Shown here one piece after another: positions 5,347 to 60,242 of a stretch of 64,000 bases of DNA. The stretch's first letter is position 1. Every line of letters begins with the position of its first letter. The notes beneath the pieces are model-generated. The model did no database searches and was not told the origin of the DNA. It was given only the letters and a program-made list of their open reading frames with translations. Made by a program: the position numbers and the translations under genes. This DNA comes from a phage: NCBI GenBank assembly GCA_038314665.1, contig GCA_038314665.1_3677.1, one strand, 5' to 3'.

Positions 5347-8300
5347 ATGGCTGATATTAAAGTTGTCAGAATTGAATCTCTTCCTGCCACTACCGCAGTG
5401 ACAGAGGATGATTACCTGGTTGTTCAACAACCAGACCTGACCCGTCGTGTAAAAATTGGCGATGTTGTCCATGTGGATGGGACTGTTTCTCATGTAATCT
5501 CCTTTAAGGAAGGTGGTAAGTTAAACGGCCCAATGGATTTTGCCTACTTCGAAGAGGAAGACCTCTACCTGCGTTGGAAAGGCGAATTTCCACACACTGT
5601 TCCTGCACTGTCTTCACCGTACTCCGATGGTGGGATTACTGACGCTGCATGGATGGTATATACTGATCCGTCCTTAAGGGAGGAGCTGGAATCTACCATT
5701 GGCGCATCCATGATTATGACAGCTGAAGGTCAGTCTGTCCAGGATGTAATGGATGTTACAGTTAAGACCGCCAACGATGCTAAAGCACTTGCACAGCGGG
5801 TAGATTTTGGTACCGTGCACACTGTAGGCGATGTTATTCACCTTGTCAATTTTGTTGGCCCTGCAGTTATTGAAGAGGGAAGAACTACTAACTACCCTTC
5901 TGTAGCAGCTGGTGAAAAATTCCTGAACGGTGTGGTATCTCGTCGTGATACTACAACTGTTGATGGTATTTTCCGTGGCGCTACCTCCGGAGCTATGTAC
6001 ACCATTGCAGTAACCAACGGTGTAGCAACAACAAAAAGAATAGCACTTCGTGATGAATTTAAACGCCTAGAGGCAAACAACCCAACAAGAACCATTATTC
6101 GTGCTGGTGATGATGTAAACACAGCCGGGTACTTGCAGCTTGATGCAACAGGTCGTTGGGGCATGTGGAACCAACAGACATCTTCATGGCAACCTCTTGC
6201 TGTAGAGCAAGGTGGTACAGGTGCCAGAGATGCCGCAGGTGCACGTATTAATTTAGGAACTTTTTATAAACAACGTGCAGCCCTTGAGGCAAATTTCAAT
6301 ATCAATAATTTGACGGGTAATCAGGATGGTGTATACTACCAGCCGATGACTGCTAATGCAACTGAGGAAAATGGCTACCCTGCAGGTTCTGGTGCTGGTC
6401 ACTTAATTGTTTGGCAGAACAATGCTAACGGCGGTGCAGGTTGTCGTCAGGAATACTATCCATTCTCTAACGTAGATGTTTGGTATTTGAGAACCTATCA
6501 GGCCAACACAAATCAGTGGACTGCATGGCAGCCTATGGTCAGACCTCGTAACGATGACACCTTCAGATCTCATATCGGCCTTGGTAAAAACAACTCACCA
6601 GCATTCGGGCACCTTTACTTAGCTCAATACTCTGGAGATGTTAAATCGGCCTCAGGTATTGTACACGGTGACAAGTATAATCGAGAAGGTACTCTTGAGC
6701 ATGGATATCGTATCTACTCTGAAGTAAGAAACGATAATAAAGCTTGGTTAACAATACACCTCCATAAGGGAGCTACTGGTGCAGAAACACATAGATACCT
6801 CGGATTCAGAGAGGATGGTGTTTTAGATTGTCCTAAATATATGCAGGTTGGCGATCTAAATGGTCAGCTGGCAAACTGGGGACTGGCAGAGTGGATCCGT
6901 AGTTCAGGCGCTGAAAGAGGTTTCTGGGGTTCCAAGAAAGCAGCCAAAATGGTTATCTGGGACGGAGGCATGGATGAGTCTGGTAACGGCACTCTGGAAT
7001 GGGGTGTTTATAACAACCGGAAGGCCAAGTGGGAACCTTTACCTCAAGCCGCAGGTGGTACTGGAGCTACAACTCTGGCAGAAGCTCAAAACCTGTTTAG
7101 AATACCTATGGCAGCAGGTGTAAAAGATTTCTTAACACTGCCAAGAACAGCAGCCATGGTGGATGGTAAATATTACCCTGTTATTGTAAGAACAGATCCG
7201 TACTATGCACCAGCTGTTGGGACAGATATTACAATAGTTACAAGATCCTCTTCTGGCAACGATCCTATGAACTGCGCAACACTCCAGTGTCATTACAGAA
7301 CTGGTGGTTGGACAGACCGTGGAGACTCTTTTACTGGTGTTATAAACTTCTACCAGAACGAAAGAGCAATACTTGGTTGTGTTGCTCCTACTCGCGGAAA
7401 ACAAGAGTATGTTGCTTTTTATGTAGAGGCCAGAGCTTTCCCAGTAAGCGTATATACAAGCCGAAACGTGCTTGAGGTATTTACCAGGGAAAATGACTGG
7501 CAGGTAGGGAATGTAACTGACAATCAGGACGGTGTTAAGTTTTGTGCTCCGTTAGAGTCAGCAGACTTAAATCTTGCGATAAAGGGTGATAATGTAACTA
7601 ACACCAGATCTCTTGCGGAGTTTAAAGGAACATCAGGTTTTTACACAGGCGGTGGTACTCAGTGGCACTACATCGGCACACCTGAACGCTATGCGGTCAT
7701 GAGTAAAATGACCATGCCTAAAGTTGAGCTGTGGGCAGATGGTATCGACTACCTATGCCCTGGTAGCCAGACCACAAGGAAAGCACTGTTCTCTAATGCT
7801 GGATTCCAGGCAGCATCTGAAGGTACAGAGGACTTAATTAACAACACATTTACTTCCAAATGCGGCAAGGGTGCAGGTCTGAAAGGCCAGTCAGAGTTCA
7901 GGTCTACCCCAGAGGCTGGACAGGTAATTGTCAGAGATGTTGTTGGTTCTGCACATAAATTCTTTAACTTCAACAAAGACGGCACATTCTACCCTCCTGG
8001 AGGTTATGTTTGCCAGACAGGTGCGGATTGGAACAATCAGTTTGGTAACACGAACCCGTCAAAAATAATGGCTGGTAATGTTAACGGACCTGAAGGTTCC
8101 ATGGTTGTAGCAGGGTTGTCGGTCGGTTTTTCTGGAAATTATGCATTCCAGATGGCTGGTCGTCTTGATCAGTTATACACTAGGTCTATTGAGGGTGGCA
8201 ATCACAGAGCGTGGAACAAGGTAATCCAACACCGTGGTCAGGGCCTAGGGACAAACGATCTTAATGACTACAAGGGCGATAGAGAGGGTTTTTATCATCA

Positions 8301-55321: not shown

Positions 55322-55710
55322 TGAAAAATATTTGGGATATTGATATCTTTAAAGCCTCTAAGCTTGATGGTGCTGATGGAGTGATTATGGTGTCTGATGG
55401 CAAGGCAACACTAACTTCCGGAGATATCATCTATGCATTGGACGAGCTGGCACTTCTGAAATCTACTGGTAACACTTTGGAGGAGCGTCTTCAAGGATTC
55501 GCTTTCAAAGAAGGTACAAATACAGCCATGATGTGCACCACACGGACAGTTCAGGTGGGTAACGGTGTCTATATGATTATTGCTGTGTGTCCTAAATTCA
55601 GCAACGTCAACAAAGATGATGCTGACGCGGTCAACGATGTGGTTGTTCTCTTCGTGGGCGACGCTATGGCAGATCTGATGAATGCAGGAGAAGCAGCAAA
55701 TGAAGACTGA
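55318..55710 (+). CDS. hypothetical early protein
   Basis: 130-aa ORF, ATGA overlap. Confidence 0.4.
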   Translation: MMKNIWDIDIFKASKLDGADGVIMVSDGKATLTSGDIIYALDELALLKSTGNTLEERLQGFAFKEGTNTAMMCTTRTVQVGNGVYMIIAVCPKFSNVNKDDADAVNDVVVLFVGDAMADLMNAGEAANED

Positions 55711-56002
55711 AAACATCACCCCAGCAGGGTTCTTAAAAGTATACCGTGAACTGCTATATACTACAGAGGACAGTGTTCTAGAGTATCCAGAATATCTTTT
55801 GCTGTATAAGTATCTACAAGAAGCTGGTGAAAATCTGCCAGTTAGTGCAGAAGGCGGTCCGAACTGGGTATACAGCGCATGGAGAAAGGTTGACATTCTC
55901 CCAGACCCAGGTAAAGATATGGTAGTTTGGCAGCTTATCAACAACATCGGGATTCCAATCTTTGATGAAGCTGTTAAAATCTATTTTGAACTTGACGATT
56001 AA
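55700..56002 (+). CDS. hypothetical early protein
   Basis: ATG 55700 with AGGAGAAG RBS; overlaps upstream stop. Confidence 0.35.
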   Translation: MKTENITPAGFLKVYRELLYTTEDSVLEYPEYLLLYKYLQEAGENLPVSAEGGPNWVYSAWRKVDILPDPGKDMVVWQLINNIGIPIFDEAVKIYFELDD

Positions 56003-56275: not shown

Positions 56276-56304
56276 TTGTAATTTACAGAAGGGGATGCTA
56301 AAAT
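56276..56304 (+). promoter_or_regulatory. sigma70-like promoter (weaker)
   Basis: TTGTAA - 17 nt - TAAAAT upstream of 56349. Confidence 0.35.
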
Positions 56305-56348
56305 AGTGTCTCCTTCTATGTTGTTCAAATAAAATCGGAGATTCCATA

Positions 56349-56714
56349 ATGGAACAAATGAACGATCAAGAGTCGGTTGCGATGAACGAGCAAGAACAAC
56401 CTCAAGAATTTTTCTTAGGGTTAAGTAAAGATCAAGTGTCTCTTTTGCTAGTGCTTTCTTCTTTCATGGGAAGACTTCAGGAGCTCACACAACAACCGGA
56501 GGCTGAACAATTATTTCAGGCTCTGCGTGAAGAAGAAAAATATCGTCGTTTGGACTATGCCTTAGGTTGGGTAGCTCAACAACGAGATATGTTGATGGCC
56601 CTCTCTGGGACCACAAGTTTTGCAATGGGCCTGTTGGCTCAAGTTCAGGACAAATTAATTCAAGCAGGGTTTGCACACACGGCAAACACTAACGAAGAAC
56701 AAGGAGACAAATAA
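56349..56714 (+). CDS. hypothetical early protein
   Basis: 121-aa acidic ORF. Confidence 0.4.
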   Translation: MEQMNDQESVAMNEQEQPQEFFLGLSKDQVSLLLVLSSFMGRLQELTQQPEAEQLFQALREEEKYRRLDYALGWVAQQRDMLMALSGTTSFAMGLLAQVQDKLIQAGFAHTANTNEEQGDK

Positions 56715-57940
56715 TGAGCGTTATTCAACAATTCGCTAACCCGATGAATCCGCGTGAAACTGTTTTACTGGCTCACGGTATGATCAAGCGTGTCAGCATC
56801 AAGCCTATCAAAGGTGCTGATCCTACAACAGGTATTAAAACCACCGTGTGGCAAGGTAAGAAAATTGAATCCAGCCACACCATCTCTTTACTGATTTCTG
56901 AACTGGATTCCTCTGATAACCTGCTTCAAGGCGGTGAAGAAGTCTGGATCAGCATGGGTGATAAGCTACTTAAACCCGGTCATCAAGACTCTGTCTCTGT
57001 TAAGATTGATGACAAGTGGGAAACCGTAACGCCAGGATGGATCGTAAATATTCCTTTGAAGGCAAACGAGCATAACGGTAAGACCTATTACAAAGGCTCA
57101 CTGGCTAAGATGGTCAAGCTGGGTGCAGGAGAGGCTCCAGCAGCGACTCAGCAGCAAAAACAGCAACAAGGTGCACAATCACAAGGTCAGAAGCAGAAAC
57201 CTCAGCAGAATGCCAATCAGGACGTTTTACGCATCTATGGCGATGTGACTCAGATTGTTGGCAACGTGGTTACTGTTAATGACCACAAGATCGGCGAAGG
57301 TGCTATGGTTGTCACGGATGAGCAGCTTAAAGACCTGGTGGTAGGTGGTCGTGTTGCAGCCATTGTTGACAAAGACACCGGAAACATTATCAGTGGTTTC
57401 AAGGCCTATCCCCCTAAGGCAGAGAACGGCACTCAAGGCTCTGGTGGCAAGCGTAAATCCTCTTACGACCCTATCGGTGTGGAAACGGGGCATAGCATCA
57501 ATGCGTTGCAGATCATCCTGGATCGCGGGTTTAAGGTAGACGACCCACTAGGTGTGGCTAAAGCACTGCACGTAGTCACCATTGAGCTTAAGAAAGAGTA
57601 TGCTCAAGCCACCAACCGAACTGAAGATGAAGTAGGTGCCAGTGTCGGTAATGCGGTGTTGAACGCTTGTCGCCGTATTGACAAGAAAACGAAAGTTGAT
57701 GATTTTGCAGCGGCAATTACTGCAGAAGCAAAAGATGTGTTGACTAATCTGGCTGAGCCGTTGTACGATTGGATCAAGAACGGTGCTGGGTCAACTGACC
57801 ATCAAGAACCTCAGGCTGCCAAACAGGAAGCAGCTCCACAGCAAAACACTGTAGACGCTCCTCCTGTAAATGATGGGGAAGATGACCCGATGGATCAGAA
57901 TCCAGCACAGTACGCCTTTGATGACTCGATCCCTTTCTGA
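56714..57940 (+). CDS. single-stranded DNA-binding protein-like
   Basis: 408 aa; Gln/Gly-rich linker; acidic C-terminal tail ending ..AQYAFDDSIPF, matching the DDDIPF-type tip of bacterial SSB. Confidence 0.5.
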   Translation: MSVIQQFANPMNPRETVLLAHGMIKRVSIKPIKGADPTTGIKTTVWQGKKIESSHTISLLISELDSSDNLLQGGEEVWISMGDKLLKPGHQDSVSVKIDDKWETVTPGWIVNIPLKANEHNGKTYYKGSLAKMVKLGAGEAPAATQQQKQQQGAQSQGQKQKPQQNANQDVLRIYGDVTQIVGNVVTVNDHKIGEGAMVVTDEQLKDLVVGGRVAAIVDKDTGNIISGFKAYPPKAENGTQGSGGKRKSSYDPIGVETGHSINALQIILDRGFKVDDPLGVAKALHVVTIELKKEYAQATNRTEDEVGASVGNAVLNACRRIDKKTKVDDFAAAITAEAKDVLTNLAEPLYDWIKNGAGSTDHQEPQAAKQEAAPQQNTVDAPPVNDGEDDPMDQNPAQYAFDDSIPF

Positions 57941-58542: not shown

Positions 58543-58570
58543 GCCCTGCCCGAAAGGGTGGGGCATTTTT
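58543..58570 (+). terminator. rho-independent terminator (copy 2 of duplicated hairpin)
   Basis: gccctgccc-GAAA-gggtggggc followed by attttt; identical hairpin to 47534..47555. Confidence 0.55.
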
Positions 58571-59368: not shown

Positions 59369-59794
59369 ATGATCTATGAAATGCCAAAACTGATTCGCGA
59401 CGATGCCCAAAACGCTCACACCATTATTATGGGCAAACGCATGGATATTATTTGTCATAAAGATTTCTGGGAAGGAAGTTACTTCACAGAGTATTTTGGT
59501 AAACTGGACAATGGTCTGCTGATCCAGTTCTACACCGATGCGGAAAACAACATTCACTGGGAGTTCGAAACTGAAGATATTCATAAACTTTTCACCTTCC
59601 TAGGTATTAAGGTTGAGGCCAAGTTTGAAGAAGGTGAGTGCGACGATTGTGGATTCTACGAGGTAACAGATTTCTACCTCCCGAGTGGTGAGAACCTTTA
59701 CTATGAAAGCCACTTCGGCAACTCAAATATGCCACAAGGTTGGGATGAGTTTTTTGAAATTGCGGAAGAGGAGCTGGCATACCGTGATTATTGA
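59369..59794 (+). CDS. hypothetical early protein
   Basis: 141-aa ORF. Confidence 0.4.
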   Translation: MIYEMPKLIRDDAQNAHTIIMGKRMDIICHKDFWEGSYFTEYFGKLDNGLLIQFYTDAENNIHWEFETEDIHKLFTFLGIKVEAKFEEGECDDCGFYEVTDFYLPSGENLYYESHFGNSNMPQGWDEFFEIAEEELAYRDY

Positions 59795-60242
59795 TACTGT
59801 AGAGGGAGATTTAATCTCCCTTTTTAAGAGCGGTGCTGGTCACCTGATCCACGGTTGTAACTGCTTCCACACAATGGGCAAGGGGATAGCAAAACAGATT
59901 GCCCGTGAGTTCCCTCAAGCATTGGCAGCTGACAAAGAGACCAGACATGGTTGCCTAAGTAAACTGGGTGCGTTCTCCCGATGGGAGCACTTATCTCCGG
60001 TAGGTATTGTCTACGGAATCAATCTATATACTCAGTTCTACCCAGGACCTAATGCTGAGTATTTCTCAATCCTGAAAGGCTTTGAGCTAGTCAATGAAGT
60101 ATTCAGTGGATCTACTTTACCATTCTACATCCCTAAGATCGGGTGCGGCATAGGTGGTTTGAAGTGGGAGCACGTAGAGGACGTTATTAACCTTGCCACT
60201 TTTGATATGGATATTATCGTGGTGGAGTACAAAAAGTGTTGA
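59784..60242 (+). CDS. macro-domain protein (ADP-ribose binding/hydrolase-like)
   Basis: GTG 59784 after GAGGAG, overlapping upstream stop; HGCNCFHTMGKGIAKQIAREFP and IPKIGCGIGGL match macro-domain glycine-rich signatures; the longer track ORF from 59685 is probably not the real start. Confidence 0.55.
   Translation: MIIDTVEGDLISLFKSGAGHLIHGCNCFHTMGKGIAKQIAREFPQALAADKETRHGCLSKLGAFSRWEHLSPVGIVYGINLYTQFYPGPNAEYFSILKGFELVNEVFSGSTLPFYIPKIGCGIGGLKWEHVEDVINLATFDMDIIVVEYKKC

Follow-up and report, generated by a model that had tools for sequence, protein, structure and literature searches.

The window analyzed here is a 64,000-nucleotide stretch of DNA (contig GCA_038314665.1_3677.1 of GenBank assembly GCA_038314665.1) from an rV5-like Vequintavirus, a coliphage. 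It carries a gene for a 408-aa protein (Table 1), which the initial annotation had described as SSB-like. The reading frame and its ..FDDSIPF end were confirmed, the translation finishing in PAQYAFDDSIPF before a TGA stop codon. The phrog_4477 profile covers residues 1-408 (E=3.4e-172), and the protein is 95-99.5% identical across 116 rV5-like phage records. In most of the rV5-like phage records examined, the gene is labelled "hypothetical protein"; GenBank OK272482.1 (phage JLBYU08) labels it "putative single-stranded DNA-binding protein." For the gene of E. coli O157 typing phage 4, BFVD lists two products, of 168 aa and 100 aa (A0A0F6THK0 and A0A0F6THU5, 96-99% identical), which suggests a frameshift or a split gene call in that record. 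Sixteen GenBank "Campylobacter phage" records (MG065635-MG065677), which give Campylobacter jejuni as the host, match E. coli rV5-like phages at 94-99% identity here and look like cases of mislabelling or contamination.

Table 1. Features of the SSB-like gene and its 3' flank, with positions in the window
Feature	Position	Strand	Evidence and remarks
Shine-Dalgarno AAGGAG of SSB-like gene	56701..56706	+	7 nt before ATG; read from sequence
SSB-like gene (whole)	56714..57940	+	408 aa; ATG start, TGA stop; ortholog of Bas52_0087 (QXV84166.1); phrog_4477
N-terminal all-beta domain, aa 1-141	56714..57136	+	AF2 pLDDT 81-91; predicted OB fold, presumed ssDNA-binding module
Gln-rich disordered linker 1, aa 142-170	57137..57223	+	pLDDT <50 for 142-168; 45% Gln, 7% Gly
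Middle five-stranded barrel, aa 171-235	57224..57418	+	AF2 pLDDT 81-88; b1-b2-b3-short helix-b4-b5; barrel at 171-232 in the model
Gly/Ser-rich disordered linker 2, aa 236-250	57419..57463	+	pLDDT <50; composition
Four-helix bundle, aa 251-358	57464..57787	+	Helices 253-270, 278-299, 304-321, 328-355; AF2 pLDDT about 90
Codon of D252	57467..57469	+	D in window protein and Bas52_0087; wild-type, DRT10-sensitive state
Codon of Y351	57764..57766	+	Y in window protein and Bas52_0087; wild-type, DRT10-sensitive state
Disordered acidic tail, aa 359-400	57788..57913	+	pLDDT <50 for 360-408
Tip AFDDSIPF, SSB-Ct-type docking motif	57914..57937	+	E. coli SSB counterpart: DFDDDIPF
HNH/EndoVII-type homing endonuclease gene, 192 aa	57949-58527	+	phrog_1035 E=6e-33; no Pfam match; 8 nt after SSB-like stop
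Hairpin terminator of SSB-like gene	58543..58564	+	Terminator scan; GCCCTGCCCGAAAGGGTGGGGC plus T-run; displaced about 600 bp downstream by endonuclease cassette

According to the ORF coordinates, the ATG overlaps by 1 nt the TAA of an upstream 121-aa ORF (56349-56714, + strand), which is acidic and Gln-rich, belongs to phrog_7310 (function unassigned), and shows translational coupling with the SSB-like gene. Immediately 5' of this ORF are a hairpin resembling a terminator (56287-56317) and a site resembling a promoter (56276-56304). We considered the 121-aa ORF ("putative SSB" in OK272482.1) as a conserved partner and discarded it, as the ORFs upstream of the gene in Stephanstirmvirinae and metagenomic loci bear no relation to it.

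Bas52_0087, from Escherichia phage RudolfGeigy, is identical to the window protein at 403 of 408 residues (98.8%), with D252 and Y351 both kept. The two genes have in common their position after the primase-helicase and polymerase, their predicted architecture, and a C-terminal tip of the same type. The differences, from window to Bas52, are A284T, A369T, G388E, A401S, and S405D; the tip reads AFDDSIPF in the window protein versus SFDDDIPF in Bas52_0087. Unlike the Bas52 locus, the window has a homing endonuclease gene between the stop codon and the terminator.

We modeled the protein with AF2 from a 28-sequence alignment (mean pLDDT, 74). The AF2 models, the family alignments, and a tail census assign to the window protein an N-terminal beta domain, a four-helix bundle, and a disordered acidic tail ended by [ILV]PF. 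The initial annotation had proposed structure prediction as a check for OB folds, and the outcome agreed with its SSB-like label: the N-domain has a predicted OB fold of the type found in bacterial SSB, and the top fold matches of the protein are bacterial-type SSBs, ahead of gp2.5-type and RecO matches. The middle barrel is the "second OB fold" of a recent preprint (bioRxiv 10.64898/2026.04.29.721553). A Gln/Gly-rich linker running up to the tip had also been described; the Gln-rich segment is real, but it is internal, joining the N-domain to the middle domain, and the residues that lead to the tip (359-408) are instead rich in D, Q, P, and A, with a net charge of -10. The most conserved module is the four-helix bundle, where D252, G255, G259, H260, N263, G308, G312, L316, and C319 are invariant or near-invariant in the family alignments. 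By the up-down topology of the model, D252, at the start of helix 1, and Y351, near the end of helix 4, probably lie at the same end of the bundle.

An exhaustive profile search, with clusters at 50% identity and E<=1e-3, gave 245 clusters that match the family. A long form of about 345-420 aa contains the middle barrel, and a commoner short form of about 260-310 aa joins the N-domain straight to the helical bundle without it; the barrel is optional, being present in 31 of 97 aligned members. Mean column identity in this 97-member alignment is 19%, and no position is invariant apart from G312, P407, and F408. All 97 of these diverse members fall in phrog_4477, and neither they nor the window protein have a Pfam match. 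When the N-domain, middle-domain, and helical-domain profiles were compared by hhalign with the E. coli SSB OB domain, the probability was <1%. In a profile search of the PDB, the family's only SSB matches were with bacterial SSBs (7f2n, 1eqq), in their 26 C-terminal residues. At the sequence level, Pfam, the PDB profile search, and hhalign gave no sign that the folded domains are homologous to E. coli SSB. A few members of the SSB-like family match the SSB-annotated PHROGs 18154, 7364, and 378, but these matches cover only the last 40 residues. As far as profile comparisons reach, similarity to SSBs is confined to the tail.

Like bacterial SSB, the protein ends in a disordered linker and an acidic tip of the D-D-D-I-P-F type, the window allele being D-D-S-I-P-F. 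The likeness of this tip to the bacterial SSB tail, already pointed out from the window sequence, is not a chance match, since in all six frames of the window the SSB-like protein is the sole ORF with a [DE]x0-2[ILVM]PF* terminus, P407 and F408 are invariant in 97 members, and E. coli tail matches recur in the family. One family member has exactly the 13 C-terminal residues of E. coli SSB (NEPPMDFDDDIPF), five more agree with them at 12 of 13 positions, and many members reproduce the extended enterobacterial motif PPMDFDDDIPF. The SSB-like tail was also the only match in the window in a tblastn search with E. coli SSB, a query whose last 26 residues were corroborated by the 1eqq alignment. Among 150 representatives at 50% identity, 105 end in [ILVM]PF and 17 more in an acidic run plus PF, PW, or DF; the rest are mostly fragments. 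Tip variants in the family include DDLPF, EDVPF, DESIPF, ...PW, and ...DF. The Ser at position -4 (S405, codon 57926-57928), which gives DDSIPF for DDDIPF, is a recurrent polymorphism within the family. In bacteria, the SSB-Ct pockets of DnaG, ExoI, RecO, chi, and PriA all have a basic rim that accommodates the acidic residues, and all contact the carboxylate of the C-terminal Phe ionically (PMC5872125).

Some family members carry an extension of 14-16 residues after the ...DIPF tip, with the pattern [AS]PxGLxYxxHxIxxL; such a capped tail ends DFCDDIPFAPVGLQYGKSRIHAL. The extension is conserved at the protein level in at least 9 divergent family lineages (carriers: homologs P0001, P0006, P0021, P0044, P0048, P0051, P0060, P0096, P0151, and P0170; loci L009, L012, L013, and L019). 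The capped form P0001 constitutes the largest 90%-identity cluster among close relatives (533 member sequences), although it has no free terminal Phe, and in the AF2 model of this allele the extension is disordered (pLDDT about 30). The same extension occurs on canonical bacterial-type SSBs (fragments P0204-P0238; 45 of 51 matches) from Salmonella, E. coli, Proteus, Providencia, and Klebsiella genomes, for example, ...VNIGGTMQMLGG...PPMDFDDDIPFAPIGLPYPRHAIYVI. In one family member, 23 of the last 26 residues are common with a Salmonella SSB. A tblastn search of phage records with a 30-aa tip-plus-extension peptide gave no match, and we found no literature on the post-tip extension. As the extension is borne by family members and canonical SSBs alike, and as one member has 23 of 26 terminal residues in common with a Salmonella SSB, the tail, capped or not, looks like a module that unrelated SSB scaffolds have exchanged.

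The sequence 3' of the gene varies between relatives. About 50 of 116 close relatives, the window included, have an endonuclease gene right after the SSB-like stop codon. In the endonuclease-free phages RudolfGeigy, FFH2, and JLBYU08, the same hairpin as in the window lies directly 3' of the stop codon. ECML-10 and EmilHeitz carry at this site a 207-aa variant of the endonuclease (88% identical), and L009 carries a 204-aa one. Eight close relatives were sampled, and in these the tip allele tracked the insertion: FDDDIPF without endonuclease, FDDSIPF with the 192-aa endonuclease, and DFCDDIPF plus APVGLQYGKSRIHAL with the 207-aa endonuclease, whose start codon sits inside the extension. DDSIPF was found in 3/3 members of the close clade with the 192-aa endonuclease versus 0/3 without. 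We considered the Ser tip and the post-tip extension as by-products of endonuclease insertion and rejected this idea: in a second clade, about 75% identical, DDSIPF occurs without endonuclease and with another Ser codon (L017), and the extension in L019 is followed by a terminator and tail genes. The linkage between tip allele and endonuclease is therefore not causal. The BASEL phages hold several of these alleles, Bas48 and Bas52 being endonuclease-free (Bas52 tip, SFDDDIPF), Bas50 and Bas51 having a window-like endonuclease junction, and Bas49 being capped. The RudolfGeigy record (MZ501102.1) annotates the terminase large subunit as a CDS joined from 3 pieces and both the DNA polymerase and the anaerobic NTP reductase as CDSs joined from 2 pieces each, along with several homing endonucleases, and this genome appears rich in mobile introns and endonucleases.

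In RudolfGeigy, the SSB-like gene lies about 3 kb downstream of the primase/helicase and DNA polymerase genes. Four other loci have their genes in a similar order, with the Toprim/DnaB primase-helicase and the polymerase followed by a few small ORFs and then the SSB-like gene, namely, one Stephanstirmvirinae phage and L006, L007, and L008; L006 and L008 are metagenomic contigs with PF00476 polymerases, and the polymerase-sized ORF of L007 was not confidently typed. The RudolfGeigy annotation includes helicases, polymerase, ligase, and exonucleases. Since no SSB is annotated among its 231 features and none of its 52 hypothetical proteins of at least 109 aa matches an SSB/OB Pfam family, this phage, which has its own replisome, offers no SSB candidate besides the SSB-like protein.

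The folded part of the protein differs from that of bacterial homotetrameric SSB (E. coli, PF00436), to which it has no sequence-profile similarity. The protein is about twice as long as E. coli SSB, which lacks both its additional, optional barrel and its conserved four-helix bundle; in the model, the bundle suggests an assembly mode other than the OB-OB homotetramer. T7 gp2.5 has an acidic tail with a C-terminal aromatic residue. Like SSBs of the gp2.5 type (DUF2815/Enc34-like), the window protein is a putative phage-encoded SSB with an adjacent gp4-type primase-helicase and family-A polymerase, and the family tails observed here are acidic and aromatic-ended. Foldseek gave weak matches to the gp2.5-type fold (4klk, E=0.1; 4jg2, E=0.27; BFVD DUF2815, E=0.016), and there was no Pfam or sequence match; the helical bundle is not in gp2.5, and the closest folds are bacterial-type. 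HK620 SSB, a canonical-type tetramer of 21 kDa, recruits the phage annealase Sak4 on ssDNA through its last six residues, NDYPPF (PMC5928155). It resembles the window protein as a phage SSB whose terminal six residues are similar to DDDIPF and serve partner recruitment on ssDNA, but it is of the canonical type, and its demonstrated partner is Sak4, whereas no Sak4-type gene is annotated near the SSB-like gene.

A recent preprint describes Bas52_0087 as an "SSB-like" protein that triggers DRT10 (UG17), a reverse-transcriptase defence (bioRxiv 10.64898/2026.04.29.721553, 30 April 2026). According to this preprint, the escape mutants D252V and Y351C of Bas52_0087 evade DRT10, Bas52_0087 supplied in trans enhances restriction and is non-toxic when expressed alone, and overexpression of SbcB (ExoI) weakens the defence, for which the authors suggest competition with SbcB. 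In our AF2 model, both published escape positions map to the four-helix bundle. Searches by gene name and accession found no other papers on the SSB-like gene. Vequintavirinae or Bas48-51 come up in papers on retron Eco2, Retron-Eco7, retron-Kva2, and KpAvs2, but as far as their texts show, none of these deals with the gene. The SSB-like finding is thus real and, at the level of prediction and genetics, already known from the 2026 preprint and one GenBank annotation; the endonuclease insertion, the tip alleles, and the observations on the tail module and its cap are the new part of our analysis.

We propose, with a probability of about 0.7, that the protein is the phage's own replicative, non-canonical SSB, built on a scaffold outside Pfam, in which the OB fold would bind ssDNA, the bundle would assemble the protein, and the tail would present an SSB-Ct-type peptide. 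Judging from fold and context, the N-terminal OB fold, together with the optional middle barrel, would bind ssDNA at the phage replication fork, and the four-helix bundle, to which the escape substitutions map, may mediate self-association. The long disordered acidic tail would present ...DD[DS]IPF, the motif that bacterial SSB docks into basic-rimmed pockets of partners such as ExoI/SbcB, PriA, RecO, Pol III chi, and DnaG; we infer each of these contacts for the phage tip. Phage ssDNA coated with the protein may then attract host SSB clients or compete for them, possibly along with proteins of the phage replisome, and the disturbed ssDNA metabolism would be what DRT10 senses. Recruitment of, or competition for, the host SSB interactome had been put forward in the initial annotation; since SSB-Ct pockets share the basic rim and the Phe-carboxylate contact (PMC5872125), the tip could act in this way, which is consistent with the published SbcB genetics.

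The tip of such a phage SSB might instead serve mainly the phage machinery (the family-A polymerase, the primase-helicase, or a recombination partner), as in T7 gp2.5 and HK620 SSB, its likeness to the host tip reflecting shared ancestry of the tail module. This is possible, and it is compatible with the replicative SSB that we propose. The adjacent replisome is T7-like (Toprim/DnaB primase-helicase plus PolA), the NDYPPF end of HK620 SSB is needed to recruit Sak4 (PMC5928155), interactions of phage SSB tails with phage proteins were addressed by Kong and Richardson in 1998 (cited in PMC5928155), and the family tips vary as listed above. Yet the exact PPMDFDDDIPF of many members goes beyond "acidic plus Phe," and a genetic link to host ExoI has been reported (bioRxiv 10.64898/2026.04.29.721553).

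The exact mimicry of the tip and the modulation by SbcB dosage of a defence that senses the protein (bioRxiv 10.64898/2026.04.29.721553) would also suit a decoy that is no working SSB, whose host-type tip sequesters or inhibits host SSB-client nucleases and helicases for counter-defence or takeover and whose beta domains have another role; an ORF of the RecBCD-inhibitor family PF25708, similar to T7 gp5.9 and immediately upstream of the short-form homolog in L007, points the same way. We consider a decoy unlikely, however: five lineages keep the gene behind those for primase-helicase and polymerase, a phage that encodes the rest of its replisome has no other SSB candidate, the top fold matches are true SSBs, and capped alleles are common although a decoy would depend on a free tip. 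The combination of an OB fold with a helical domain might also describe a RecO-like recombination mediator or a helicase-loading adaptor, rather than a general ssDNA-coating protein. This we regard as very unlikely, given that RecO and PriA bind the SSB tip rather than carry one (PMC5872125), whereas the window protein carries it; Pfam searches with the protein and 97 members found no zinc finger or RecO sequence signal, and SSB fold matches rank above RecO matches. Both of these readings are less likely than a replicative non-canonical SSB.

With the protein read as a phage SSB, phage SSBs emerge as common triggers of bacterial immunity (retron Eco8, now DRT10), and the protein shows that the host's universal SSB docking peptide can be carried by a phage scaffold of a very different kind. 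Should the tip indeed bind ExoI and further SSB clients, this would explain how an ExoI-tuned defence senses infection and would define a peptide-pocket contact. In annotations, the name putative SSB can be given to the family, which comprises at least 245 sequence clusters.

More speculatively, and on balance we doubt it, the SSB tail may be a portable module that passes between the PF00436 SSBs of mobile elements and the Pfam-less phage family, either as free ...DDDIPF or capped, with the cap acting as a natural switch. By removing the terminal Phe carboxylate, the cap would turn off or re-target the contacts of the tip, be they with host SSB clients, with defence sensors such as DRT10, or with both. 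If so, Bas48-52 would be a ready-made allelic series (free DDDIPF, DDSIPF, and capped).

Several small ORFs neighbor the SSB-like gene or its homologs. About 1.7 kb downstream of the gene, a 185-aa ORF (59685-60242, + strand) has a Macro domain match (PF01661, E=2.5e-6), and a Macro_2 match is also found near the homolog in L007. T7 gp5.9 is a RecBCD inhibitor, and the gp5.9-family ORF of L007 (54 aa, 7837-8001) abuts the start of the short-form homolog. Upstream of the gene in the window, a 106-aa ORF (55682-56002, + strand) matches DUF7238 (PF23885, E=3.9e-7), and the same family occurs upstream of the L019 homolog.
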